Assembly: GCA_964646765.1 (NCBI GenBank)
Contig: CAZYIA010000003.1
Location: forward strand, 66,815-130,814
Direction of reading: 5' to 3'
Origin: an uncultured Candidatus Saccharibacteria bacterium
GTDB taxonomy: Bacteria > Patescibacteriota > Minisyncoccia > Phycocordibacterales > UBA9973
DNA length: 64,000 nt
Shown piece after piece: positions 1,207 through 19,875 of the stretch. Both the position numbers and the translations under genes were made by a program. Under the pieces are notes generated by a model, which worked only from the letters and a program-made list of their open reading frames with translations, was not told the origin of the DNA and ran no database searches. The number at the start of each line of letters is the position of its first letter. Positions within the stretch are counted from its first letter, which is position 1.

Positions 1207-1290
1207 GCGCGGGTGGCGAAATTGGTAGACGCACTACCTTGAGGTGGTAGCGGCCGCAAGGCTGTGGAAGTTCAAATCTTCTCCCGCGCA
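1207..1290 (+). tRNA. tRNA-Leu (anticodon GAG), class II with long variable arm
   Basis: Cloverleaf folded by hand. Acceptor GCGCGGG/CCCGCGC, anticodon stem CTACC/GGTAG with loop TTGAGGT, a 15-nt variable arm, T-loop TTCAAAT, discriminator A. CCA is not encoded. Confidence 0.85.
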
Positions 1291-1299
1291 CATGATACA

Positions 1300-1326
1300 A
1301 AAAAGGCGACTGCTCGCCTTTTTTGT
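1300..1326 (+). terminator. Rho-independent terminator after tRNA-Leu
   Basis: GGCGAC-tgc-TCGCC hairpin followed by TTTTTTG. Confidence 0.7.
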
Positions 1327-1332
1327 TTACAT

Positions 1333-1560
1333 GGGCGAGGCGGAGTGATGTTTTGCGAGCACGCAAAACCACGAGCCGGGGTCGCGGAATTGTATGAGCG
1401 ACGGCGAATACAATATCCGTGACCACAAGTAAAAGACGAGCGAAGGCTCGTCTTTTACTATGCGCGGGAAGTGAGCAGCCTGCGTTGCTCACGTGGAGAT
1501 TTGAACGCCGGAGCGATATTCGGCTAGCAAGCCGAATCGCGAGGCGGTGCCCAGACAAAG
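1333..1560 (+). ncRNA. Unclassified structured RNA-like element, copy A of a tRNA-adjacent conserved element
   Basis: A core of about 75 nt (1333-1405) is roughly 80 % identical to 19328-19401. It contains stem GTTTTGCG-agcac-CGCAAAAC (1350-1369), whose two variant positions covary in copy B. Further perfect hairpins follow: GACGAGC-gaag-GCTCGTC, GTGAGCA...TGCTCAC and GCGATATTCGGC...GCCGAATCGC. 1461-1510 carries tRNA-Leu-derived fragments: TATGCGCGGG repeats the tRNA 5' end, and the minus strand reads like a tRNA-Leu T-loop plus 3' acceptor interrupted by a hairpin. There is no credible ORF; the 119-aa antisense track ORF is rejected. Confidence 0.4.
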
Positions 1561-1681
1561 GCGAGTGACGATGAGCCTTTAGTTGCGGGCAAATCTTCTT
1601 GTTATGCTTGTTAACTTGTAACCCAAGAAACTATTCCCAGTTTCTGGAGGTTTTTTAGTATACATACGATATACTTGTCTC

Positions 1682-4600
1682 ATGTTACCAATTGCGATTG
1701 CTCGATCATTCCGAGCCACAGTGTTTTCTCTGGTCGTACTTTTCTCATTAACGGCAGTACCGGTATTTGCCGCTCCTCCAACGTTGGCAAATTATACGTA
1801 CGCAACAACAGCAACAACAACGAGTGCGACAGCTGACTACACATTTACTTTTACAACAGCAACTGAGGTTACTAACGCTAGTGAAATGATTTTCAAAGGA
1901 GATTTTGGATCTTCGTTTGATCTCTCATCAAGTACAGCTGCTGTTACTGTTGGCGGCACTCCTATAACAGTTGGAGAATTTTGGAATGGAGGAGGAAGTG
2001 GCAATGTATATATTCGGTTAACTGATACAGTACCCGCAGGCTCAAACGTTGTAGTTACCATTTCAAATATTGTTAATCCAAGTTCAGCAGGGTACTACAC
2101 TATTGACTCGGTTGGGACAGGGGACAGTGGACGAAACACTATTGATGCTGTGCCGTATACAACAACATTTACTATTGGTGATCCTACGCCAATTTTTGAT
2201 GGTGGTGATGGATCTGATGGATCACCATTTTTAATCAGTACATGTTTACAACTACAAGGAATATCGCACGATCTTACTGCTACAGCTCACTATAAACTTA
2301 CGACCGATGTTGATTGTTCAGAAACATCGTCGTGGAATGGTGGTAAAGGATTTACACCACTTGGTGATGGAGGTCATCCATTCATGGGGACATTCTTGGG
2401 TAATGGTCACATAATTTCAAATCTCTATATTAATGATGCAGCTTCTGCGTATGCTGGTTTATTTGGTAATGCCTATGGTGGAGCTGTTATCCGAGGCGTT
2501 CAACTGAGTGGCGCCACCGTTATTGGTGGAACGAGCGTTGGTTCTCTTGTTGGGAGCATGGCTGGCGTTACATTTGAATATAACAGTGTAATAACTGCAA
2601 CGGTAACTGCTTCAAATGGCGCAGGATCCGCTGGAGGACTCATTGGGTATGCGGGAGAAGCGAACAATATTCATGATTCCTACTCACAAGACGCAACCAT
2701 AAACGGAGGCACAAGCGCCGGTGGTGTTATTGGTTGGCTTAATGATGGAGTATACAGTTTAGTTTCTAATCTTTATTTTGCTGGCACCAACCTTACTGCT
2801 GGTGACTTCGCCGGACCAATTGCAGGAAGTTCAAACAATACAGTTTCAAATTCGTTTTATGATCATGATCTATACGGAAGTGATAATGGGGTTGGAACAG
2901 CTAAGACAACCGGTGAGATGCAAACTGAATCAACATTCACTGATGCCACTTGGGATTTTGAAGATGTCTGGGTGCTTAATGTAGAAAGTTATCCAACACT
3001 GCGATGGACAGAGCCGGTAACAGCAACCTATGGTGGAGGCGATGGCTCGGAAGGTAGTCCGTTTCAGATAAGTTCGTGCGATCAGTTGCAGTACATGTCT
3101 CATGATCTTACCGCACATTATATTTTGACCGGAGATGTAGATTGTTCAGGAATTACCAACTTCAAGCCAGTTGGTACGATTGATACTCCGTTTACTGGTG
3201 GATTTGATGGAGATCATCACACTATTTCAAATCTCAATATTAACCGACCACTTCGTGACACGGGTGTTGGTTTGTTCGGCGCAATTCAAGGAGTTGCCAT
3301 CACAGATCTTGTTTTAAACACCAACATAAATATCTCAGGTCATGATTATGTAGGTTCTCTCGTTGGTAACGCTGTTAACAGTCAGATAACAAATGTGACT
3401 GCAACTGCAACAGTTAGTGGCCACGGACAAGTTGGTGGACTGATCGGAGCAATCAATGGTGGAACAAATGTTACGCATTCCTCAGTGCTAAATGGAACCA
3501 CCGTGAGTGGATCCTCAGCTGTTGGTGGTTTGATTGGGTTGGAAGCTTCATCAACATATGGAGTGTTTTATGTGACACAGTCATCCGCGGCAGCTACAAC
3601 CGTGAGCGGTGATAATGGAAACATTGGTGGCTTGATCGGGTATGTTTCAACTGGAGGTATTGCCGATTCATACTCTCAATCAAATATAAGTCTTGGAGGC
3701 ATTGCCGTTTCTCAGGTTGGTGGTCTTATCGGTGGTATGAGTCATGGCATGTTGCTTCGAACCTATGCAGCAGGAACTGTTTCGACAAATAGTACTAATG
3801 CCACTACCGCTGGCTTAGTTGGAGGAGCATTCTTTAGAGGATCAATTACCGACTCATTTAGTGCGGTCCATAACTCTGGTATTGGTGCAAGTTTCGTGTA
3901 TGGATTGTATGGATCATTTAGTCTGGATACTGGTGATGGCTTTGCACTTTCCAATAACTTTTATGACGGAAGTCAAAATGACAGCAACGCATGTTATGCA
4001 AGTGGTCCTGATAGTGAATTAAACTGTGTGCAAATCAATCCAATTGATCCCGCAACATATTGGAAGCAGGTAATTAACAGTCCAATTGCAGTGTGGGATA
4101 CCACTACTGTTTGGAATGTTGCTACCAGTGGTTCAAATTGGCCTGAACTTTATGCAGAAGGTGAGCACGCCCCAACAGTGTTTGCTGGAACAGGTACCAC
4201 AAACGATCCATATCAAATCGGTAGTTGTGGTCAGCTTCAGGCAATGAACGAACACCTCGACTCACACTTTATTCTTTTAAGTGATATTAATTGTTCTGAA
4301 ACTTCAGCTTGGAACAGCGGTCTTGGCTTTTCACCAGTAGGAGATCAGACGGATAGATTCCAGGGAGAACTCAACGGTGACGGTCATACTATTAGCGGTT
4401 TGACGATTAACCGTCCTGCTCAAGTTGATGTTGGTTTGTTTGGATATACAGATGGTGCGCTTATAAAAAATATATCTTTAACCACCGCAACAATTACTGG
4501 TCTTACGTATGTTGGAGCACTGGCAGGTTTTATCCGCGATACGACTCTCAATGATGTATCTATTAGTGCAACCGTGAGTGGTGAAAGTAATATAGGTGCG

Positions 4601-5914
4601 CTTGCCGGAATTATTACAGAATCAACAGTTGAAGACTCAAATTCGGAAGGAACTGTCACCAGTTCTGCTAGTCTTGCTGGTGGTTTTGCTGGGGAGACAG
4701 CTTGCGGATCAGAATTCTCACGTGATTTTTCTACAGCAACTGTGAGCGGCGAAACAGATATTGGTGGATTTACCGGATTTGATGGTTGTGAAGGACCTGG
4801 ATCAATATTTAATGAAGTGTATGCAACTGGTAGTGTGACTGGGACAAATAAAGGCATAGGAGGATTGATTGGTCATGCAGTTCAATCGACAGTTCAAAAT
4901 GCGTATGCGAGTGGTGATGTACACGGATCTGACTTAGTTGGTGGTCTTGTTGGAAACGGAATGGATGGTACCTATGCAAAAGTATATGCTCGAGGCCATG
5001 TAACCGGAACTACAGGAAATGTTGGTGGATTATTTGGTAAATTAGCTGGCCAAGAAATTACCATCTCTAATACCGATACTTTTTTTGACGCAACTATTAT
5101 GTCTAACGATCCTGGAACTTGGGGGACAGGGAAGACAACAGCGCAAATGAATTCTAATGGAACATTTATTACTGCTGGTTGGGATTTTGAAGAAGTGTGG
5201 GCTCGCCGTGATGTGCACAATGATGGCTACCCATACTTTAAGTGGCAGTTTGAAGAAACAGACACAACAGCCCCAGTTATCATTTTGACTTCACAACCTC
5301 CACGAAATACAACTACTTCAAATGTCATTTGGGCATTTCAAACAAATGAAGCTTGTGAGGTGATTGCCGAACCAATAGTTGCATCTCCAGCATATGAGGC
5401 TGAGCTTCTCTTTGAAGAAGTTCAGGTTGGTACTAATGTTCATGGAACACTACAACCAGTTCAAACAGGGGAAACATACACTATTACATTTAGTTGTCGC
5501 GATAACGCAGGTAATGTTTCAAATGAGCTCACCGTCGGACCATTTACTGTTGGGAATGGCTCAGGTCCTGTTCTTATCACCACTCCTATCCCAGGATATG
5601 GAGGAGTTCCGCCACTTAATTCTTCTACGGGCACTCCTGGATTAAATGGTGGAATCTCAAACACTGAAATTTTCACGCACGATCTCGGCTTTGGTATGAC
5701 TGATCCTGATGTGAAGCGTCTCCAAGAGTACCTTAACAGCCACAATGCTCAAATTGCTAAATCTGGTCCTGGATCTCCAGGAAAAGAAACTACCCGATTT
5801 GGTTCTCTCACGAGAAGCGCTCTTAAGAAATTTCAGAAAGCACACGGCATTACCCCAACAACTGGTTACTTTGGACCAAAGACCCGAAAGTGGGTGAATG
5901 AGCACTGGAATTAG
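1682..5914 (+). CDS. Giant secreted GLUG-repeat surface protein with C-terminal peptidoglycan-binding domain (1410 aa)
   Basis: N-terminal signal peptide (FSLVVLFSLTAVPVFAAPP). Three copies of a roughly 280-aa module (GDGSxGSPFxIxxCxQLQxxxHDLxxHYxLxxDxDCSxT...GHxISNLxIN) followed by arrays of GGLIG/GGLVG (GLUG) motifs. The C-terminal 60 aa form a PG_binding_1-like domain (LQEYLN...GPGSPGKETTRFGSLTRSALKKFQKAHGITPTTGYFGPKTR). Confidence 0.85.
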   Translation: MLPIAIARSFRATVFSLVVLFSLTAVPVFAAPPTLANYTYATTATTTSATADYTFTFTTATEVTNASEMIFKGDFGSSFDLSSSTAAVTVGGTPITVGEFWNGGGSGNVYIRLTDTVPAGSNVVVTISNIVNPSSAGYYTIDSVGTGDSGRNTIDAVPYTTTFTIGDPTPIFDGGDGSDGSPFLISTCLQLQGISHDLTATAHYKLTTDVDCSETSSWNGGKGFTPLGDGGHPFMGTFLGNGHIISNLYINDAASAYAGLFGNAYGGAVIRGVQLSGATVIGGTSVGSLVGSMAGVTFEYNSVITATVTASNGAGSAGGLIGYAGEANNIHDSYSQDATINGGTSAGGVIGWLNDGVYSLVSNLYFAGTNLTAGDFAGPIAGSSNNTVSNSFYDHDLYGSDNGVGTAKTTGEMQTESTFTDATWDFEDVWVLNVESYPTLRWTEPVTATYGGGDGSEGSPFQISSCDQLQYMSHDLTAHYILTGDVDCSGITNFKPVGTIDTPFTGGFDGDHHTISNLNINRPLRDTGVGLFGAIQGVAITDLVLNTNINISGHDYVGSLVGNAVNSQITNVTATATVSGHGQVGGLIGAINGGTNVTHSSVLNGTTVSGSSAVGGLIGLEASSTYGVFYVTQSSAAATTVSGDNGNIGGLIGYVSTGGIADSYSQSNISLGGIAVSQVGGLIGGMSHGMLLRTYAAGTVSTNSTNATTAGLVGGAFFRGSITDSFSAVHNSGIGASFVYGLYGSFSLDTGDGFALSNNFYDGSQNDSNACYASGPDSELNCVQINPIDPATYWKQVINSPIAVWDTTTVWNVATSGSNWPELYAEGEHAPTVFAGTGTTNDPYQIGSCGQLQAMNEHLDSHFILLSDINCSETSAWNSGLGFSPVGDQTDRFQGELNGDGHTISGLTINRPAQVDVGLFGYTDGALIKNISLTTATITGLTYVGALAGFIRDTTLNDVSISATVSGESNIGALAGIITESTVEDSNSEGTVTSSASLAGGFAGETACGSEFSRDFSTATVSGETDIGGFTGFDGCEGPGSIFNEVYATGSVTGTNKGIGGLIGHAVQSTVQNAYASGDVHGSDLVGGLVGNGMDGTYAKVYARGHVTGTTGNVGGLFGKLAGQEITISNTDTFFDATIMSNDPGTWGTGKTTAQMNSNGTFITAGWDFEEVWARRDVHNDGYPYFKWQFEETDTTAPVIILTSQPPRNTTTSNVIWAFQTNEACEVIAEPIVASPAYEAELLFEEVQVGTNVHGTLQPVQTGETYTITFSCRDNAGNVSNELTVGPFTVGNGSGPVLITTPIPGYGGVPPLNSSTGTPGLNGGISNTEIFTHDLGFGMTDPDVKRLQEYLNSHNAQIAKSGPGSPGKETTRFGSLTRSALKKFQKAHGITPTTGYFGPKTRKWVNEHWN
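5693..5905 (+). repeat. Shared C-terminal PG-binding cassette, nucleotide-level repeat (partner at 11861-12075; diverged copy at about 9430-9640)
   Basis: 5693-5737 and 11861-11905 match at 41 of 44 nt (GGyATGACTGAyCCTGATGTGAAGCGTCTCCAAGAGTAyCTTAA). Similarity continues through GGATCTCCAGGA...TTTGGACCAAAGAC, about 80 % identity over roughly 200 nt. Confidence 0.7.
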
Positions 5915-5945
5915 GTCTCAGTACTACAAATTTATCCACACATAT

Positions 5946-5978
5946 AGTAAAGGGAGCCAAGTCTTGGCTCCCTTTACT
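5946..5978 (+). terminator. Perfect 16-bp inverted repeat between surface-protein genes 1 and 2
   Basis: AGTAAAGGGAGCCAAG-tc-TTGGCTCCCTTTACT. There is no T tract, so it could be a terminator, an attenuator or an RNA processing/protein-binding site. Confidence 0.5.
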
Positions 5979-5993
5979 ATATACTTAGAGCAT

Positions 5994-8900
5994 ATGTTTA
6001 TATCACGACGTCTTTTTTCAGTCGTTTTCTTTGCGATTGCTATTGTACTAGTATCGGGAGTTTCATTTCCAACCATCGTTCATGCCGCGGCAACCGATGT
6101 TACTTCGTGTGCAGATTTTGAAAATATCAATAACAGTCTTGATGGTGATTATGTTCTAACCACTAACATTGATTGTACCGACGAAGGTAACGCGATCATG
6201 GTAGGCACTGACGGTAGTCCGTTCACTGGTACATTTGATGGCCAAGGTCATAAAATTACCGTAAACATTAATGTTACAGGTAGTGATTATGTCGGTCTCT
6301 TCCGAGCAATTTCAGATCCGGGTACTCGTGTAGAAAATTTGTGGGTTTCTGGCACAATCGCCGTTACCAACCAACATGGTACTGGTGCGGTAGTTGGAGA
6401 AACAAAAAGTAACTCCACTGTTTCAGAAGTAGTTAGCGATGCAACCATTACTTCTAATTATTACAACGTCGGTGGTCTCATTGGCGAAATGACCGGAAAT
6501 TCTCTTCTGGCTGATTCCTACTTCGTTGGTTCAGTCACGGCAAACATTAATATTGGGGGACTGGTTGGTTCGGCGGCAAATGCAGAAATTACTACTTCAT
6601 ATGCTGCGGGAGAAATTCACACAGACTATTTTCATAATTGGGCTGGTGGGTTAGTGGGTCATACATTCAACAGTGCTGTCTATATTATTTACTCTTTCAA
6701 CGCGAGCTCGATGGACACCAACGGCGGCGGTTTGATCGGTTATAGAGATGATACGCTCAGCGTCAGTGATAGTTACTACGATGCCACTATTTCTGGAGCC
6801 ACTGCCTGCGATCATGAAGACGTCGGTGGATCACTCACAGGTTGTACGGCTATTGTTGGTAATTCAGGTTATTTTAAAGATGACGTAACAAGCACCGCAC
6901 CATTTGCAGGCGGTACTTGGAATTTCACCGACACATGGGAGATTGCTACCAATGACTACCCACGACTCAAAGTGTTTGAAGCACTTTACCCAGTTCCGAC
7001 ATACGCAGGCGGAGTTGGCACACCAGAAAATCCATATCAAATCACTACTTGTGCGGGTATTGAAGATATCGACAACCATCTTTCAGCCTCATATGTGCTT
7101 AACAGTGATATCGATTGTACTTCAGCGCAAAATGACATTATTGTCCGAGGCCAATTCTCCGGAACGTTCAATGGTAATGGTCACACCATCACACTTTATA
7201 TAGACACGACAGATGACGGCATCGGTTTGTTTGAAATACTCTACGGTGCACACGTCAAAAATCTGCATCTTAGTGGTCAAATCATGGGAGGTGGTCTTGA
7301 AGGCGCGCTCGCTGGTACAGCAGATAATGGAACAATCATCCAATATGTAGGCAGTGATGTAAGCGTGTCTACACATACTGGTTCAAACCTGACTGGCGGC
7401 CTTGTTGGATTGCTGACACAGCACTCGTTAATTTCAAATTCGTTTAGCACTGGAGAAATTACAGCAGATGGATACGCAACCGGCGGTTTAGTAGGTTCAC
7501 TCTTTTATAGCGGAAGTATTGATCGTTCGTATGCTTCAGGCGCGGTTCATGGCGGGACAGATACAGGTGGCCTCGTTGGTAAGGGTGATACGCAGGCAGG
7601 ATCAATCACTCAAAGTTTCCAAGCCGGCCATGTGGACGGCGGACCGAATACTGGAAGTATTATTGGAGAAAGAGCGGCAGCAACATTGGCTGATGATTAC
7701 TTTGACGCAGACATAAATGGTCTCGGTGCTGTTTGTGCTGGAGATGCAAGTAACGCATGTACTTTTGTGAATGGCGAGGGAAGTAATCCGAATTATTTCA
7801 TTAACAATAGTGAGAATCCTCCGTTTCCTGAATGGGACTTCAATAACGTATGGATAACCAGCACAGGGAAGCTGCCATATTTGCGGACACCAGTTACCGC
7901 TTCGATGGCATACTATCCGCTCGATGATATCAGCGGTTCGTTTACTCAAACTACTCCAGATCTTACAGGGTTTCGTGATGCAACACTGCACGGTGCTACA
8001 CTCCCATCTCGTGTTACGGGCAACTTCCAGCATGCCCTGTCGTTTAACGGATCAAACTATGCAAGTACCTCACTTCCATTTTCTCAAAGCGGCACAATAT
8101 CGCTCTGGGCATACCCAACGACAACAGGTGCTGGCATAAGTCCTGCAGGTTGGAAGCTCACAGGTCCAGGTAATGGTTATGTGCTTTTGGATGAAGGCGA
8201 TGGAAGTCATTGGCGCGCAAATTTTCAGCCGGATATTGATGGTGCGAGTGGAGTAGTAGTAGAAGATTTAAGTTCAATTGCTACCAATCAATGGAACCAT
8301 TTAGTGATGACGTGGTCATATAATTCAATTGCAAATGAGACCACAGTTCATTTGTACGTAAACGGAGTTGATAAAGGCTCAGAGATTTGGGCTGGCACAC
8401 CAGGTGCTAATGGCCTCGGCGGATTCAATATCGGAAAGTCAGGAGATTCTAATGGCGATTACTTCACTGGTAAAATTGATGAAGTCCGCGTATACGATTA
8501 TGCCCTCGGCGCCGGAGAGGTTGCGGATCTCGCCGGTCTCGCTGTTGATCATGTGAGCGGCGTGCCAACCGTCACTGCTACAAGTCCGGAAGACGGCGCA
8601 ACTGGAGTACAAACTAATCATGAAATGAGCGGCACGATTACTTTCTCGGAGGCGATGAATCCGAACCTAAGCGAACTTTCATTTGCTCCATGTGCTTCTA
8701 CATGTCCAACCGCGGTTCTTGGTTGGGACAATGGTGATACCGTACTTGGGTTCTTGATTAATGATCCAAATCCACTCGCCCCAAATACTGAGTATACCGT
8801 TATTGTACGTGGCCAAAGTGTTGAAGGCGTATTAATGGCTTCACCATATTCGTTCTCATTTACTACTGAAGATACAGTTACGGAAACTCCAATCATGGAA

Positions 8901-9665
8901 ATTACCGCTCCACAGTCAGGTAGTTCTTATAAAACCAATGAAACGATGCATTTTAATTTCACACTTCCAGAGTTAATGTCTGCCGATACTTTGTCTATCA
9001 CATTTACGCGAACTGACACAGATGCCTCCGATATTGTTCTCAATATGAAGGATGCAAATGCAGAACAAGAAAATATCTTTGATTTACCTCTCAATAATCT
9101 AGCTGGTGCAGAAGAAGTAGTACTTGCTCACGTGATGCAGGATACGGTAAACAATATTCCTGCTGGAACCTATACCATTACGCTTTCGTACCAAGATGCT
9201 GCAGGAAATCCTGCTGCTACGGCTTCAATTTCAAATATTGTTATTGCTGAACCGACAGTCACTTCGCACAACGTTACTCTTATTCCTTCAGGCCCTGGTA
9301 GTATTGGACACTTTGTTTCATCTTCAGGTACGAACGCATCCGACTGCCAACCAGGATTTCTTGTTTCGCCAAATACGGGGCAATCCTGTATCCAGGAGCA
9401 ACAGCCCACAGCTATCTTCCTCAAGGACCTCAAAAAGGGAATGGTTGATCCCGACGTCTCTAAACTTCAACACTACCTTGATCTCGCTGGTTTCCCAGTA
9501 GCACTTACTGGCCCAGGCTCGCTTAACCATGAAACTACGACTTTTGGGTCAAAAACAGTGATAGCTTTAAAGAAATTTCAGAAAGCTCATGGTATTCCAG
9601 CAACTGGTTTCTTTGGACCAAAAACGAGAGCCTATGTTAATGCTCATCTCGATATACTCAAATAA
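5994..9665 (+). CDS. Giant secreted GLUG-repeat protein with LamG (concanavalin-like) lectin domain and C-terminal peptidoglycan-binding domain
   Basis: ATG at 5994 gives a signal peptide (MFISRRLFSVVFFAIAIVLVSGVSFPTIVHAAA), whereas the track start at 5898 overlaps gene 1. GLUG motifs are present (VGGLIGEMTG, IGGLVGSAAN, TGGLVGKGD). A Laminin_G_3-like block spans LHGATLPS...GTISLWAYP...NQWNHLVMTW...LYVNGV...GKIDEVRVYDYAL. The C-terminus is PG_binding_1-like (DVSKLQHYLD...FQKAHGIPATGFFGPKTRAYV). Confidence 0.85.
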   Translation: MFISRRLFSVVFFAIAIVLVSGVSFPTIVHAAATDVTSCADFENINNSLDGDYVLTTNIDCTDEGNAIMVGTDGSPFTGTFDGQGHKITVNINVTGSDYVGLFRAISDPGTRVENLWVSGTIAVTNQHGTGAVVGETKSNSTVSEVVSDATITSNYYNVGGLIGEMTGNSLLADSYFVGSVTANINIGGLVGSAANAEITTSYAAGEIHTDYFHNWAGGLVGHTFNSAVYIIYSFNASSMDTNGGGLIGYRDDTLSVSDSYYDATISGATACDHEDVGGSLTGCTAIVGNSGYFKDDVTSTAPFAGGTWNFTDTWEIATNDYPRLKVFEALYPVPTYAGGVGTPENPYQITTCAGIEDIDNHLSASYVLNSDIDCTSAQNDIIVRGQFSGTFNGNGHTITLYIDTTDDGIGLFEILYGAHVKNLHLSGQIMGGGLEGALAGTADNGTIIQYVGSDVSVSTHTGSNLTGGLVGLLTQHSLISNSFSTGEITADGYATGGLVGSLFYSGSIDRSYASGAVHGGTDTGGLVGKGDTQAGSITQSFQAGHVDGGPNTGSIIGERAAATLADDYFDADINGLGAVCAGDASNACTFVNGEGSNPNYFINNSENPPFPEWDFNNVWITSTGKLPYLRTPVTASMAYYPLDDISGSFTQTTPDLTGFRDATLHGATLPSRVTGNFQHALSFNGSNYASTSLPFSQSGTISLWAYPTTTGAGISPAGWKLTGPGNGYVLLDEGDGSHWRANFQPDIDGASGVVVEDLSSIATNQWNHLVMTWSYNSIANETTVHLYVNGVDKGSEIWAGTPGANGLGGFNIGKSGDSNGDYFTGKIDEVRVYDYALGAGEVADLAGLAVDHVSGVPTVTATSPEDGATGVQTNHEMSGTITFSEAMNPNLSELSFAPCASTCPTAVLGWDNGDTVLGFLINDPNPLAPNTEYTVIVRGQSVEGVLMASPYSFSFTTEDTVTETPIMEITAPQSGSSYKTNETMHFNFTLPELMSADTLSITFTRTDTDASDIVLNMKDANAEQENIFDLPLNNLAGAEEVVLAHVMQDTVNNIPAGTYTITLSYQDAAGNPAATASISNIVIAEPTVTSHNVTLIPSGPGSIGHFVSSSGTNASDCQPGFLVSPNTGQSCIQEQQPTAIFLKDLKKGMVDPDVSKLQHYLDLAGFPVALTGPGSLNHETTTFGSKTVIALKKFQKAHGIPATGFFGPKTRAYVNAHLDILK

Positions 9666-9681
9666 ATAATAGAACTTTACT

Positions 9682-9718
9682 AAAAAAAACCAGAACAAAT
9701 CCTCGTTCTGGTTTTTTT
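9682..9718 (+). terminator. Rho-independent terminator after surface-protein gene 2
   Basis: A8-CCAGAAC-aaatcctc-GTTCTGG-T7. Confidence 0.8.
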
Positions 9719-9784
9719 AGTTTTACTAACCGTTACCTGAAACCGTGATATACTTCAAATACTAGTAATAACGTTTTTTTGCAT

Positions 9785-12082
9785 ATGGTAAAGAAAATCC
9801 TGTTTCCGGTCGCTTTTATTTTTCTTAGTTTTGCTGTAGCTGGTGGCCTGTCGGCTAAAGTTGCTTTTGCTGCACCACAGTGTCATGCCATTGCTACGGG
9901 TAATTGGAGCGACCCTGCCATCTGGAGCAACTGTCATGGTGTTGGTGGTCTTCCAGACGCAACCGATATTGTAAGTATTTCTACTGATTCAATAGTTACT
10001 GTTGACGTCTCTAATGCTGTAGCCCGATCATTATATGTTTATGATTCTGTAAATGCTTCACGTGGCTATACGTTTACCCCCTCAGGAGTTCTTACGGTTA
10101 CCGATTACGCTACCCTTTCTGGATCAAGTGGTTCAGGGTCACAATTCATAAACGTTGGCGACGGTACTCTTATTCTCGGGGGAAATCTTCGTATAGATGG
10201 AGGGATTCTTGGTACAGCAACCGTAACTGTTAACAATGGCACTCTTACTGTTGGAGGAAGTATTCTGATGTCAGGTGGCCTAAATGCAAGTCTAGTTTCA
10301 ACTGGAACGAGTACTATCAATGTTGGAGGAGACTTAACCAATGGAGTGTTAACAACCTCAGGAACTGGAACGATAAATTTTAATGGAACTGGGGCCCAGG
10401 AGGTTTCTCCATATGCTACTTTTAATAACGTTATCATCTCGAATACTGGTGGTACTGTAACCATTGATTCAGGAGCCACTGTTATTGGCGGGGACTTATC
10501 TGTTACCTCTGGAGATCTTTATCTTGATGGTGGAACACTTGATGTTTTAGGAGATACCACAATTTCGAGTGGTGCTACATGGAGTGAAGGACCAGGTATG
10601 GCGGTTACTTTTGCTGGGAATCTCGAAAATGAAGGAACGTTTACTGCTGATACTGGTAACCATACGTTTACTGGGACTGGTAAAACAATTAGTGGAGGAA
10701 GTGGAATAGATATTCCTAATTTAGTTATTAGTGGAACTATTACTAACCACAATACTCATGCCCTCACAGCATCTTCCAGCCTATCAGGCGCCGGCACCCT
10801 CACTAATGCTAGTAGTGCAATCTTAGAAATTGGTGGAGATCTTACTATTACTACACTTGTTGCCTCTATTCCTGGTAACTTTGTGAAATACACTAAAGCG
10901 GGTGATCAAACAATTCGGGCGATCGAGTACAGCCTCCTTGCGGTGAAAAATGGGGGAGTGAAAACTATTCCTTCTGGTATTACTGTTGATTTTGCTCTAG
11001 TTATCAATGTGGGAAATGTCGTTGATTTGACGGGAACAACAACCACTCAGGTTCTGTATATGAATAATGCTAGCCAAGATGTTGGCTCTTGGGGTGCGAC
11101 TGGATCAGGGGCTGCAAATATTAACGACACCTTCTTTTCTGGAACCGGAACGGTTAATGTCACTGGTCTGACGGCAACCATTACTATCGACAGTATTTCA
11201 AATGATACCGGCGTTTCTTCGTCTGATTTTATTACCAAAACTGCAGGACAAACAGTGAATGTAACGATGAGTTTCCCCTATATTTCTGGAGAAACAGTTG
11301 AAGGTTCTGTTGATGGAGGAGCAACCTATACTAATATCAGCAGCATGGCTTCTGGAACGTCGGTTGTTTGGACTGGAGTGACATTGGCTAGTGGAACAAA
11401 CACGCTGAAAGTACGAGTTACACTTGCTCCTTCAGATATTTCTGGAACACAGGTTTATACACTTGATACTGATGCTCCAGGAACTATCGCAGCGACACCG
11501 AGCGCTGGGACATTTTCGTCATCTCAGAGCGTAACGCTCAGTTCCTCAGGAGCTACGACTGTGTACTATACGACTGATGGCACTTCTCCTTCGTGCTCAT
11601 CAGGTACACTATACTCTGGGCCGATCACTGTTTCTTCATCCGAAACTATAAACGCGATTGCTTGTGATGATGCTGGTAATGAAACGACTGGATCGTTTAC
11701 CTATACGATACACACTGGTGGGGGATCAGTATTTCTTATTCCTACTTTGCCAGTCATATCAGCTAACCTTTTAGGAAATTTGACTCAGCCACAAACCACT
11801 ACAGGTAGAGCAGGTGAACAGAATACTTCAAAAGAGTTATTCCCAAAGAATTTGTATAAAGGCATGACTGACCCTGATGTGAAGCGTCTCCAAGAGTATC
11901 TTAATGGCACATCATTTATGGTTGCGAAAACCGGCCCAGGATCTCCAGGACATGAAACTTCTCGCTTTGGTCCTGCTACGGCAAAGGCGTTAATGCTCTT
12001 CCAAAAGAGTATCGGTATTACACCGGCAACTGGTGGTTTTGGACCAAAGACGAGAGCGTACGTAAACACACATTCTCACTAA
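9785..12082 (+). CDS. Secreted beta-helix-repeat surface protein with chitobiase/hexosaminidase C-terminal-like domain and C-terminal peptidoglycan-binding domain
   Basis: Signal peptide (MVKKILFPVAFIFLSFAVAGGLSAKVAFAAP). Gly/Thr-rich parallel beta-helix-like repeats. TVYYTTDGTSPSCSSGTLYSGPITVSSSETINAIACDDAGNETTGSF resembles the CHB_HEX_C_1 fold. The C-terminus is PG_binding_1-like (DVKRLQEYLN...FQKSIGITPATGGFGPKTRAYV). Confidence 0.8.
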   Translation: MVKKILFPVAFIFLSFAVAGGLSAKVAFAAPQCHAIATGNWSDPAIWSNCHGVGGLPDATDIVSISTDSIVTVDVSNAVARSLYVYDSVNASRGYTFTPSGVLTVTDYATLSGSSGSGSQFINVGDGTLILGGNLRIDGGILGTATVTVNNGTLTVGGSILMSGGLNASLVSTGTSTINVGGDLTNGVLTTSGTGTINFNGTGAQEVSPYATFNNVIISNTGGTVTIDSGATVIGGDLSVTSGDLYLDGGTLDVLGDTTISSGATWSEGPGMAVTFAGNLENEGTFTADTGNHTFTGTGKTISGGSGIDIPNLVISGTITNHNTHALTASSSLSGAGTLTNASSAILEIGGDLTITTLVASIPGNFVKYTKAGDQTIRAIEYSLLAVKNGGVKTIPSGITVDFALVINVGNVVDLTGTTTTQVLYMNNASQDVGSWGATGSGAANINDTFFSGTGTVNVTGLTATITIDSISNDTGVSSSDFITKTAGQTVNVTMSFPYISGETVEGSVDGGATYTNISSMASGTSVVWTGVTLASGTNTLKVRVTLAPSDISGTQVYTLDTDAPGTIAATPSAGTFSSSQSVTLSSSGATTVYYTTDGTSPSCSSGTLYSGPITVSSSETINAIACDDAGNETTGSFTYTIHTGGGSVFLIPTLPVISANLLGNLTQPQTTTGRAGEQNTSKELFPKNLYKGMTDPDVKRLQEYLNGTSFMVAKTGPGSPGHETSRFGPATAKALMLFQKSIGITPATGGFGPKTRAYVNTHSH

Positions 12083-19221: not shown

Positions 19222-19296
19222 GGTGCCCATGGTGTAACGGTTAACACAGAGGTTTGTGGAACCTTTAATTCGAGTTCGATTCTCGATGGGCACCCA
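19222..19296 (+). tRNA. tRNA-His (anticodon GTG) with genome-encoded G-1
   Basis: G-1 plus acceptor GTGCCCA/TGGGCAC, discriminator C. Anticodon stem GAGGT/ACCTT with loop TTGTGGA. T-arm TCGAG-TTCGATT-CTCGA. Confidence 0.85.
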
Positions 19297-19305
19297 AGAC
19301 GAAAC

Positions 19306-19330
19306 AAACGGCAACTACTTGCCGTTTTTT
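19306..19330 (+). terminator. Rho-independent terminator after tRNA-His
   Basis: GGCAA-ctact-TTGCC followed by T6. Confidence 0.7.
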
Positions 19331-19500
19331 CGTACTTGGGTGAGCCGGAGCCATGTTTCGCGAGCACGCGAAACCGGCGAGGCGGGGTCGCGAGCAAAAT
19401 TGCTCGACGGAGCAGTTTTGACTTGTGACCCCAAGGCTAGTGCCCAAGTGACTGGCGAGCCAAGAGTCGCGGACGATTCTCGATGGGCGATGATACTTTT
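19328..19500 (+). ncRNA. Unclassified structured RNA-like element, copy B of the tRNA-adjacent conserved element
   Basis: Core 19328-19401 is homologous to 1333-1405. Stem GTTTCGCG-agcac-CGCGAAAC (19345-19364) differs from copy A by a compensatory pair (U.A to C.G). A second hairpin CGAGCA-aaat-TGCTCG follows. The element ends with CGATTCTCGATGGGC (19474-19488), a 15-nt direct repeat of the tRNA-His T-arm/acceptor 3' end (19277-19291). Confidence 0.4.
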
Positions 19501-19515
19501 GCTACACTATAGTTC

Positions 19516-19875
19516 ATGAAAATCATCTTCATTGCCGGCCCAGTTCGTGGGGACGGCTCGCTTGAATCAAAGCGAAAAAATATTGAGAGTGCTCGCGTAC
19601 TTATACGCGAGTGTATTACCCAGGGGATCCCATTTTATTCACCACATTTAAATGTGGATCAGGAAAGTATCGAAATGATAGGGGATCTTGGTCAATTTGC
19701 TTGGAATTTAAATGCTGAAATGCTTCGCCGCTCAGATGCTCTCGCAGTTCTTCCAGGATTTGAAGATTCGGTTGGTACAAAAAAAGAAATTTCAATTGCT
19801 ACAGATAGCGGGAAACCAGTGTTTTATCTTCCTAACGATTTTGCCAAAATTGTAAGTTGGCTTTCAGAATCGTAA
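19516..19875 (+). CDS. DUF4406-like protein (nucleoside 2-deoxyribosyltransferase-like fold)
   Basis: MKIIFIAGP...DALAVLPGFEDSVGTKKEISIATDSGKPVFY follows the DUF4406 pattern (Y/FIAGP ... D..v.L.gWe.S.G...E...A...gkpV). Confidence 0.5.
   Translation: MKIIFIAGPVRGDGSLESKRKNIESARVLIRECITQGIPFYSPHLNVDQESIEMIGDLGQFAWNLNAEMLRRSDALAVLPGFEDSVGTKKEISIATDSGKPVFYLPNDFAKIVSWLSES

Follow-up and report, generated by a model that had tools for sequence, protein, structure and literature searches.

A family of small structured RNAs with antisense guides behind tRNA, tmRNA and protein genes of Patescibacteria: candidate guide-directed insertion elements

Several described systems select their position by base pairing, or lodge in conserved RNA genes. 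In introns of groups I and II an antisense segment inside the element (P1/P10, or the exon- and intron-binding sites, EBS-IBS) determines where joining takes place by pairing on either side of that point; the nucleotide that follows is linked to the element's 3′ end, and the element lies in sense orientation in a transcribed gene. Integrative elements of tRNA and transfer-messenger RNA (tmRNA) genes, and their derivatives without an integrase, the cis-mobilizable elements (CIMEs), insert at the 3′ end of the gene with a repeat and a junction in the T-loop, accrete in tandem and sometimes supply a foreign replacement 3′ end. The IS110 bridge RNA and the IS200/IS605 insertion sequences (IS) choose their target by pairing with a programmable segment that they carry, and have folded non-coding ends. 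Eukaryotic riders such as R2 in rDNA, Dada in tRNA and small nuclear RNA (snRNA) genes and the short interspersed nuclear elements (SINEs) use conserved, highly expressed RNA genes as safe havens, depend on host transcription, are non-autonomous and, as retroelements, leave variable duplications; Dada DNA transposons reside in tRNA/snRNA genes (PMC8869645). We have studied an element that shares these respective properties, within a stretch of 64,000 nucleotides of an uncultured Candidatus Saccharibacteria bacterium (contig CAZYIA010000003.1, positions 66,815 to 130,814; hereafter the window). It is a structured RNA with a locus-specific antisense guide, placed behind a tRNA-Leu gene (locus A) and a tRNA-His gene (locus B). 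We consider, with a probability of about 0.5, that it belongs to a new family of small non-coding, guide-directed insertion elements of Patescibacteria, whose mechanism we infer; the descriptive findings on structure, strand, targets, junction register, duplication and distribution stand much more firmly.

By analogy, the element appears to work most like an intron internal guide or a guided transposon. Unlike the introns of groups I and II, however, it has neither of their cores; its own core is about 85 nucleotides (nt), its terminal nucleotide is C and not omega-G, its guide reads mostly downstream (7–12 nt) and 2 nt upstream, its host gene is uninterrupted, and there is no intron-encoded protein. 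Compared with the integrative elements of tRNA and tmRNA genes it measures 150–300 nt and not kilobases, has no integrase, presents one core at many targets, and contains an RNA-like structured core together with the locus-specific guide. No IS110 recombinase or TnpA stands beside the RNA, the target duplication is long and variable, and the core is a three-way junction, whereas the bridge RNA has two internal loops and IS200/IS605 has simple subterminal hairpins. The eukaryotic riders need a known transposase or reverse transcriptase (RT), and none is linked to the element, which is bacterial, occurs in the candidate phyla radiation (CPR), has a much smaller size and carries an antisense guide. 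The closest topic in print concerns Patescibacteria tRNAs whose anticodon loops contain group I introns (PMC13011429), introns that are distinct from the element. A full-text literature search found no published description of the element itself.

The original prediction, a reading of the window from its letters, had claimed a conserved structured RNA behind the two tRNA genes. The shared block is real. The window contains a 23-nt pattern, ATGTTTYGCGAGCACGCRAAACC, exactly twice (1348-1370 and 19353-19375), where 100 shuffles give an expectation of 0; downstream of both tRNAs the alignment extends from the first hairpin across a block some 100 nt long. Both regions fold far better than shuffled sequence, the z values being −8.2 and −6.5 for the plus strand and weaker for the minus strand. 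The two copies then recognized are both genuine; the window contains a third, with a score of 73 bits, giving three copies in total (A1, A2 and B) plus a decayed remnant.

In order to find relatives, we scanned one genome per GTDB species with a degenerate pattern specifying only putatively unpaired nucleotides, GGAGNNATGN{4,8}GAGCACN{8,14}GAGNCGGGGTC. This returned 42 loci, of which 41 are Patescibacteria metagenome-assembled genomes (MAGs) or short contigs carrying the element; the taxa represented are Paceibacterota, Saccharibacteria, and Moran-, Kaiser-, Nomura-, Yonath- and Taylorbacteria. The sole match outside the CPR (L011:386-429, in a Mycobacterium MAG) lies within a coding region and is unrecognized by the covariance model, and was set aside as a chance match. 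Two short contigs labelled Bdellovibrionales (L006 and L032) hold bona fide copies, and may be mis-binned. Applied to the window and the pattern loci, covariance model R1 gave 62 matches at E<1 and 56 at E<1e-12, so that the homologue search proposed with the original prediction yields about 60 copies in Patescibacteria. The Rfam scan proposed there found no known family at the element. At the gathering threshold of Rfam 15 only the two tRNAs pass in the window, scans at E<=10 of both window loci and of a further locus (L025, discussed below) gave chance-level matches of less than 25 bits, and a gathering scan of 16 related loci found only tmRNA and tRNA, both adjoining the element. The stated absence of tmRNA, RNase P, signal recognition particle and 6S RNA thus holds at both window loci, where no Rfam family other than tRNA was matched, whether riboswitch, ribozyme or RNA of the ROOL, GOLLD or HEARO kind. 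The element is an RNA family of about 115 nt that was previously undescribed, as the first of two hypotheses in the original prediction had it: a novel small RNA family with tRNA genes as landmarks, borne out by the lack of an Rfam match, by some 60 homologues, by strong covariation and by an exact junction in the tRNA.

A structure alignment of 39 copies reveals a three-way junction. Inside the outer helix P1 is an arm consisting of P2, an internal loop (GGA/GA), P3 and the P4 hairpin. Three unpaired G nucleotides follow, and then the long P5, which has a conserved G⋅U pair and whose strands read GUCGCG... (5′) and ...YGUGAC (3′). The P4 loop is AGCA, of 4 nt, and not the agcac given earlier. 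Across the 39 copies 89.1% of the paired cells are filled by pairs, compared with 71.7% in shuffled alignments and 33–41% when the partners are slid; double-sided changes occur in 28 of the 39 pairs, and the covariation score of 0.46 (control 0.165) was reached by none of 500 shuffles. RNAalifold independently recovers the same helices. Between loci A and B the compensatory change from U-A to C-G previously noted in the P4-type hairpin is present, and there are others in P2, P3, inner P5 and the hairpin following the tRNA. The G⋅U pair at alignment columns 62-99 is kept in 38 of the 39 copies, and columns 65-97 are G⋅U in 20 copies and otherwise G-C or A-U. This conservation indicates that the folded strand is that of the upstream gene. 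Matches that only the model found show that the element can do without P4 and the P5 tip; what stays constant is the junction GNC-GGAG...CGAG-GNC-GGGGUC...GUGAC. Tandem G⋅A motifs were seen by eye in the alignment. We rejected a minus-strand small RNA with a bidirectional terminator, because the conserved G⋅U would become A⋅C on that strand and because folding is more stable on the plus strand. Kissing between the loops of P4 and P0 (the hairpin preceding the guide) was also rejected, since comparison by eye across the copies revealed no covariation.

Read from 5′ to 3′, the unit consists of the hairpin P0, whose loop is CUGC, CUUC or CCUGCG, the locus-specific antisense guide, the three-way-junction core ending in GUGAC, and a second copy of the host 3′ end (T2). 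An intact functional 3′ end (T1) lies upstream of P0, and T2 is joined directly to the core. The corresponding features of the window are as follows.

Locus A
1207-1291, plus strand: tRNA-Leu(GAG), the host gene (ARAGORN; Rfam tRNA, 52.3 bits)
1289-1335, plus strand: long hairpin beginning at the tRNA-Leu 3′ end (sequence and fold)
1324-1439, plus strand: element copy A1 (cmsearch with covariance model R1, 119.7 bits, E 1e-30)
1328-1337, plus strand: A1 guide, the 5′ strand of P1
1339-1423, plus strand: A1 core, comprising P2, the GGA/GA loop, P3, the P4 hairpin (AGCA loop), GGG and P5
1419-1423, plus strand: terminal GTGAC of the A1 core
1424-1431, plus strand: X, the 3′ strand of A1 P1, CACAAGTA
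1431-1456, plus strand: terminator-like hairpin AAAAGACGAGC-GAAG-GCTCGTCTTTT (sequence and fold)
1459-1470, plus strand: TATGCGCGGGAA, upstream half of the split A2 guide, antisense to the tRNA-Leu acceptor 3′ strand (compared with tRNA-Leu 1281-1292)
1471-1492, plus strand: A2 P0 hairpin GTGAGCA-GCCTGCG-TTGCTCAC, with the family-typical CCUGCG loop (fold and family comparison)
1492-1605, plus strand: element copy A2, in tandem behind A1 and more diverged (cmsearch, 73.1 bits, E 1.3e-17)
1493-1506, plus strand: A2 guide GTGGAGATTTGAAC, antisense to the tRNA-Leu T-arm GTTCAAATCT
1590-1599, plus strand: CAAATCTTCT, direct repeat of tRNA-Leu positions 56-65 (window 1273-1282), 9/9 match

Locus B
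19223-19295, plus strand: tRNA-His(GTG), the host gene (ARAGORN; Rfam, 61.4 bits)
19291-19343, plus strand: long hairpin behind tRNA-His, with P0 stem GGCAA/TTGCC and loop CTAC (19315-19318), its 3′ arm being the B guide
19329-19445, plus strand: element copy B (cmsearch, 101.2 bits, E 2e-25)
19333-19342, plus strand: B guide
19425-19429, plus strand: terminal GTGAC of the B core
19430-19435, plus strand: X of copy B, CCCAAG
19437-19488, plus strand: remnant of an older T-loop-type copy (..GTGCCCAAGTGAC TGGCGAGCCAAGAGTCGCGGA), then CGATTCTCGATGGGC

At locus A the hairpin at 1289-1335 has the P0 stem GGCGA/TCGCC and the loop CTGC (1310-1313), is flanked by A- and T-runs, and enters the A1 guide with its 3′ arm; in the alignment it is homologous to the hairpin behind tRNA-His, with compensatory changes. 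The A1 guide is partly decayed. The hairpin at 1431-1456 has the layout of the trailer and terminator behind tRNA-Leu, and by analogy with loci at which these are duplicated (L002 and L016) we read it as a displaced or duplicated trailer that would form part of T2. In copy A2 the P4 stem is fully covaried (ATTCGGCT/AGCCGAAT), AGATTTGAAC of the guide complements GTTCAAATCT of the tRNA-Leu T-arm, and the 3′ end is ...GCGGG|CAAATCTTCT, in which CAAATCTTCT is both the 3′ strand of P1 and the displaced copy of the target; the guide pairs with the TT on the 5′ side of the junction. A2 is the inner, older copy of T-loop type, and A1 is the outer copy of trailer type. Several details of the original prediction are thereby recast. 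The repeat TATGCGCGGG of the tRNA-Leu 5′ end is present, at 1459-1468 and not 1460-1469. The three further perfect hairpins exist and are not debris, being the P5 arm of A1, the terminator-like hairpin at 1431-1456 and the tandem copy A2. The minus-strand match to the T-loop and acceptor of tRNA-Leu (1459-1506) is also there; it is A2's antisense guide, which the P0 hairpin of that copy divides in two.

At locus B, CTTGGGTG of the guide (19335-19342) is the perfect antisense of CACCCAAG (19291-19298), crossing the junction GGCA|CCCAAG by 2 nt. A tRNA fragment had been claimed at both loci, and locus B does end in an exact repeat of 15 nt: CGATTCTCGATGGGC at 19474-19488 matches tRNA-His 19277-19291, from C56 into the acceptor 3′ strand (15/15, z 6.9). 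The remnant at 19437-19488, compared by eye, would correspond to the 3′ part of A2. Locus B has two layers as in locus A, the inner layer being now this remnant.

The duplication of the gene end was examined by a systematic comparison of flanks, and the direct repeat shared by T1 and T2 starts exactly at the 3′ strand of P1. Representative repeats are the following.

L015, topA: 91-nt repeat (z 91)
L002, tRNA-Asp: 62-nt repeat, from the T-loop to the terminator
L016, tRNA-Tyr: 32-nt repeat
L006, tRNA-Arg: 22-nt repeat
L037, tRNA-Leu: 21/21-nt repeat
Window locus B, tRNA-His: 15/15-nt repeat

The length of the duplication varies from about 7 to 110 nt, and the inserts of 150–300 nt contain no open reading frame (ORF). 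In tRNAs C56 of the T-loop is the first nucleotide beyond the junction, which separates it from position 55 (GGTT|CGAATCC); in topA the junction is GGCA|C(A/G)AAAAC and in rpsI TGGT|CAAAGCG, while the element side is invariably ...GUGAC|. In a trailer subtype, to which A1 and B of the window belong, the site is formed by the last tRNA nucleotides (GGCA|CCCAAG in B). At +1, opposite guide column 12, 33 of 39 copies have C. Copies stand in tandem in the window and at L012, L026, L036, L039 and L098, and serial insertion has given T1, T2, T3 arrays at L012, L039, L098 and window locus A.

At topA, T2 is an in-frame copy of the last ~25 codons (..KTIPERCSNK.C.NHNPHK..stop), with the following hairpin included at some loci; a longer housekeeping RNA behind topA was rejected, the extra conserved block being this second C-terminal coding copy. 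T1 and T2 of topA differ, by hand count, by about 14 synonymous and 3 non-synonymous changes at L026, including a serine switch between AGT and TCA, and by about 10 and 3 at L040. In rpsI of L024 the changes are AAG to AAA and CGT to CGC, the trailers and terminators of T1 and T2 differ in L002 and L016, and at L098 T2 is a mosaic flanked by nucleotide-identical T1 and T3. The mainly synonymous differences indicate that T1 and T2 diverged as parts of functional genes, pointing to transfer between lineages. The nearest empty topA loci are at most 83% identical, too distant to tell whether T1 or T2 is native. An open frame with mainly synonymous differences is kept in topA T2 at L015, L019, L026, L039, L040, L090, L096, L097 and L098, and in T3 at L039 and L098.

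The guide comprises 9–14 nt antisense to the host gene at the insertion point. It is the most informative feature of the element, and had been overlooked in the earlier reading. Besides being the partner of T2, the 5′ strand of P1 is perfectly antisense to the upstream gene in its intact form: on average, its longest Watson-Crick run is 8.0 nt with the upstream site and 5.3 with the downstream copy, compared with 5.3 and 3.4 for shuffled guides. The upstream run is the longer in 41 of 50 copies, with maximum runs of 13–14 nt, and in 23 of the 27 copies that could be registered it crosses the T1/T2 junction by exactly 2 nt. The pairing of individual guide columns confirms this register.

Guide column 13 with target −1: paired in 37/45 copies
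Guide column 14 with target −2: paired in 35/45 copies
Guide column 15 with target −3: paired in 8/45 copies
Guide column 13 with the element's own end (..AC): paired in 3/45 copies
Guide column 14 with the element's own end (..AC): paired in 1/45 copies

At least eight dinucleotide types covary (UG:CA, AA:UU, AC:GU, GA:UC, CG:CG, UA:UA, CC:GG and UC:GA). The conclusion from this column pairing is that the element records the target as it stands without interruption, in constant register to the site where its own 3′ end is joined.

Of the 42 pattern loci, 21 have a tRNA on the strand of the core and 39–230 nt upstream of it, for which we estimate a chance expectation of about 0.5%, given ~45 tRNAs per megabase. 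The pattern loci include at least 11 tRNA specificities (Lys, Asp, Arg, Trp, Phe, Ala, Leu, Tyr, Val, Ile and Ser), and three copies sit between two tRNAs, inside tRNA operons (L020, L034 and L037). One copy follows tmRNA (L004), and the stop codon of topA, encoding DNA topoisomerase I, precedes copies in nine GTDB loci and seven metagenome loci. Genes for ribosomal protein S9 (rpsI; L007 and L024) and efp (L031) are also hosts, identified from translations rather than by a family search. The tRNA is therefore a landmark as originally claimed, with the junction at 55/56 or at the tRNA 3′ end, and not the only one, since tmRNA, topA, rpsI and efp serve as well. The claim that the RNA is not a gene-specific leader was correct; copies precede unrelated genes. 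The orientation of the element is always that of the host gene, and no promoter-like site was found between either window tRNA and its elements. The sole such site is upstream of tRNA-Leu, a sigma-70-like match TTGAAA-17-TATAGT at 1157-1185, 22 nt 5′ of the gene.

Two loci deserve mention beside these hosts. In a Parcubacteria MAG (ant_bin.260) four copies occupy 3 kb (L036:4688-7951), two of them behind tRNA-Leu(GAG) and tRNA-His(GTG). The insertions at these two tRNAs in L036 and in the window are probably orthologous and old, with P0 stems that are fully compensated. On the minus strand of L017 (1461-1553) a diverged copy of 34 bits, convergent with a copy linked to tRNA-Val, lies at the 3′ end of a minus-strand ORF of 165 amino acids, which is another protein-gene host.

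No integrase, transposase or RT adjoins any copy; clustering of the neighbouring ORFs over the 42 loci gave only host genes and ordinary synteny. A Pfam search of 38 window ORFs found no recombinase; thirty of the window ORFs tested are housekeeping or transport genes, with no integrase, transposase or RT among them. The distribution is patchy. A metagenome scan with the TopA C-terminus gave 80 CPR-like topA loci, 7 of which (~9%) contain the element, all laid out as T1-P0-guide-core-T2. The 73 empty loci have ordinary terminators or none, and never a P0 hairpin with a CUGC, CUUC or CCUGCG loop; the confinement of P0 to the filled loci indicates that P0 was brought in by the element. Many tRNAs in the element-bearing loci are also without it. 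Cores are not more alike within genomes (69%) than between them (67%), and the closest relatives are often at other targets in other genomes: window copy A1 is 89% identical to a topA-type copy, and one topA copy is 93% identical to a tRNA-Ser copy. This pattern argues for a mobile family that changes its targets, and not for a vertically inherited host RNA.

How might such an element move? It would be made as a 3′ extension of tRNA, tmRNA, topA, rpsI or efp transcripts, because it has no promoter of its own, keeps the orientation of the host gene and lies within tRNA operons. We infer a guide that directs insertion, an active form made of RNA and not of single-stranded DNA, and an enzyme or ribozyme that performs the joining. 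The guide would pair with the sense strand of the target, as RNA or as the exposed DNA of a heavily transcribed gene, covering 2 nt on the 5′ side and 7–12 nt on the 3′ side of a CRAA motif, which in tRNAs is C56 of the T-loop. The element 3′ end (GUGAC) would then be joined to the +1 C in the register fixed by the guide, in a geometry that resembles the way intron reverse splicing begins, with the RNA itself or a host enzyme as catalyst. The 3′ end of the gene would be regenerated or supplied upstream, and the gene would stay intact. Once inserted, the cassette could spread between lineages by recombination, its homology arms being the gene on the left and T2 on the right. Saccharibacteria have been shown to be naturally competent and capable of homologous recombination, and conservation of com genes extends across the CPR (PMC10633639). 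A more specific proposal makes the core a small ribozyme of a new kind, or the RNA part of a reaction assisted by a host enzyme, acting as a minimal mobile intron: the guide would dock on the exposed sense strand of a strongly transcribed gene or on its RNA, the 3′-OH of the element (GUGAC) would attack the phosphodiester 5′ of the +1 C, and repair or copying would restore the 3′ end upstream. Such a system would be protein-less, programmable and RNA-guided, with the tRNA T-loop as its ancestral target. We regard this as unlikely; the fixed 2-nt register, the conserved junction purines and the conserved G⋅U pair may be taken as indirect hints of a ribozyme.

Several considerations weigh against guide-directed insertion. 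The loci examined span about 8 kb each, and a trans-acting protein could be encoded elsewhere in the genomes. We have found no free form, and no simple insertion that lacks the duplicated 3′ end. Old copies (L026, L041 and L012) retain a perfect guide to the functional gene while their T2 decays, and persistent guide pairing could equally be a cis function in the resident transcript, unconnected with mobility. Guide-directed insertion offers no account of the joint origin of a new guide and a matching 3′-end copy on retargeting, and RNA and folded single-stranded DNA are indistinguishable by sequence alone. Finally, the search pattern forced several of the 'invariant' core positions in the first 42 copies, which overstates the sequence conservation of the core.

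The persistence of the guide would be expected if the element were a cis-acting 3′ trailer RNA of benefit to the host, working inside the primary transcripts of strongly expressed genes and serving as a processing or termination signal, blocking 3′ exonucleases or sequestering the T-arm or last codons, with the duplicates as by-products of copying. Such a trailer would also explain the constant orientation without a promoter between gene and element, the copies inside tRNA operons, which must be transcribed there, and the orthologous copies of the window and L036 with their compensated P0. Yet an element filling 7 of 80 related topA loci, and missing behind many tRNAs, is dispensable and patchy, the tandem arrays and long coding-sequence duplicates have no obvious cis role, and near-identical cores stand at different targets in different genomes. 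Moreover, the perfect antisense of 17–19 nt to the T-arm of the gene's own tRNA at L012 and L025 would hinder tRNA folding. We think a trailer function unlikely. The second hypothesis of the original prediction, RNA near the att site of a decayed tRNA-integrating element, is close to another possibility, in which a miniature element like a CIME or a miniature inverted-repeat transposable element (MITE), or an island remnant, is mobilized by a tyrosine recombinase in trans with crossover in the T-loop, so that the duplicate represents attL/attR. The insertions are indeed flanked by a duplicated gene 3′ end, with attL/attR-like tRNA repeats of, for example, 21/21 nt at L037, 24 nt at L002 and 15/15 nt at window locus B, and a crossover point in the T-loop of tRNA or tmRNA; the class II sublocation of Williams, from 2002, is said to correspond to T-loop crossover. 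Tandem accumulation fits as well, and the differing trailers of L002 and L016 and the synonymous divergence of topA are expected if a foreign 3′ end was brought in.

Such a history is nonetheless decidedly improbable. Neither an integrase nor any conserved neighbour protein is present at any of the ~60 copies, and a single integrase family serving at least 12 tRNAs together with tmRNA, topA, rpsI and efp is not expected. Strand-specific G⋅U pairs, compensatory changes and G⋅A motifs have no role in a double-stranded att site, a locus-specific antisense guide in fixed register is unlike known attP sites, and no match was found in phage, plasmid and viral collections (two pattern scans of IMG/VR, and blastn against the phage and plasmid collections). 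An integrase island or prophage remnant in the ordinary sense was rejected, as the inserts of 150–300 nt have no ORF and no recombinase lies near the 42 loci. The absence of a conserved neighbour protein, the small size and the tandem occurrence give the core the appearance of the element itself, and not of a larger element's leftover. The guide and the strand-specific structure, with pairs that are compatible with G⋅T, are features that might instead suggest a single-stranded-DNA transposon derived from IS200/IS605, like the palindrome-associated transposable elements (PATEs), in which an HUH transposase in trans would read the hairpins and the guide would pick the site. There are hairpins at both ends (P0 and P5), the junction is set by guide-target pairing, and there are no terminal inverted repeats and a fixed orientation. 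However, IS200/IS605 makes no target duplication, where 7–110 nt are duplicated here, its guides are 4–5 nt and not 9–14, TnpA/TnpB adjoins no copy, and a multi-helix junction with conserved unpaired purines is more like an RNA tertiary fold than an IS end. We consider this origin very unlikely, and the duplication and guide length led us to reject an element of IS200/IS605 (PATE) type proper.

Other known classes were also tried and rejected. A MITE or DDE-type IS does not fit, since the sole inverted repeat (P1) is locus-specific and matches the target, and the duplication is variable in length. For group I introns there is no Intron_gpI match at E<=10, the 3′ end is the C of GUGAC, and the upstream tRNA and topA are complete; for group II introns there is no Rfam match, the size is ~115 nt and no RT is adjacent, and these introns are reported to be absent from Patescibacteria (PMC13011429). 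No recombinase adjoins any copy, as would be required for an IS110 bridge RNA or seekRNA. A retron non-coding RNA (msr-msd) has some resemblance in the P1-like inverted repeat, but there is no downstream RT at any copy. A template and variable repeat like that of a diversity-generating retroelement was excluded because the T1/T2 differences, compared by hand, are not limited to adenines, and no RT is nearby. A riboswitch or 5′ leader is incompatible with copies that follow genes, sit between tRNAs and precede unrelated genes. Reading P1 as the T-stem of a duplicated tRNA with a T-loop insertion agrees superficially with copy A2; topA, rpsI and efp contradict it, as do guides complementary to the T-loop bases themselves. 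The element thus fails the defining tests of every family considered, and its mechanism is a proposed one.

If guide-directed insertion is correct, streamlined CPR genomes would host a widespread mobile element without a protein, whose target is written in a short antisense guide and whose preferred site is the tRNA T-loop, reputedly the best conserved of all biological sequences. Such an element would make a very small and potentially programmable addition to the guided insertion systems, which include group I and II introns, IS200/IS605, the IS110 bridge RNA and CRISPR-associated transposons (CAST). Whatever the mechanism, the family is a new structured RNA of ~115 nt with strong covariation in many classes of Patescibacteria, and accounts for pseudo-tRNA fragments and duplicated gene ends beside tRNA, tmRNA and topA in these bacteria. 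For annotation it follows that 'att' repeats close to tRNAs in CPR MAGs need not indicate prophages.

A second kind of core, type 2, of ~100 nt, lies between the tRNA and the element described above (type 1) at L012:2854-3065 and L025:3475-3625. It reads GAG(A)GGGG.GGGUCGG.., followed by a hairpin with a CCUGCG loop and then ..GUUCGAAACCGAGGGUUUCGAAAGAG.., and is flanked on one side by a perfect antisense of 17–19 nt to the tRNA T-arm and acceptor 3′ strand, and on the other by a sense repeat that runs from the T-loop. It has no Rfam match, and a weak match to R1 (14.6 bits).

In the window itself, a minus-strand ORF of 119 amino acids (1199-1558) runs across tRNA-Leu and both A copies. It has no Pfam match and the substitutions within it are compensatory in RNA helices; it is almost certainly spurious. 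The exact DUF4406 protein encoded 3′ of locus B (19516-19875) occurs on the Logan/ENA contigs SRR11845619, SRR11845634, ERZ17987222 and ERZ27283008. Downstream of locus A, 1682-12082 contains three consecutive ORFs of 1410, 1255 and 767 amino acids with a common repeated C-terminal module, seen in the DNA as repeats at 5693-5905, 9438-9647 and 11861-12073. The first of these ORFs has M26-peptidase-N, GLUG and peptidoglycan-binding domains, and the whole looks like a paralogous array of surface proteins.

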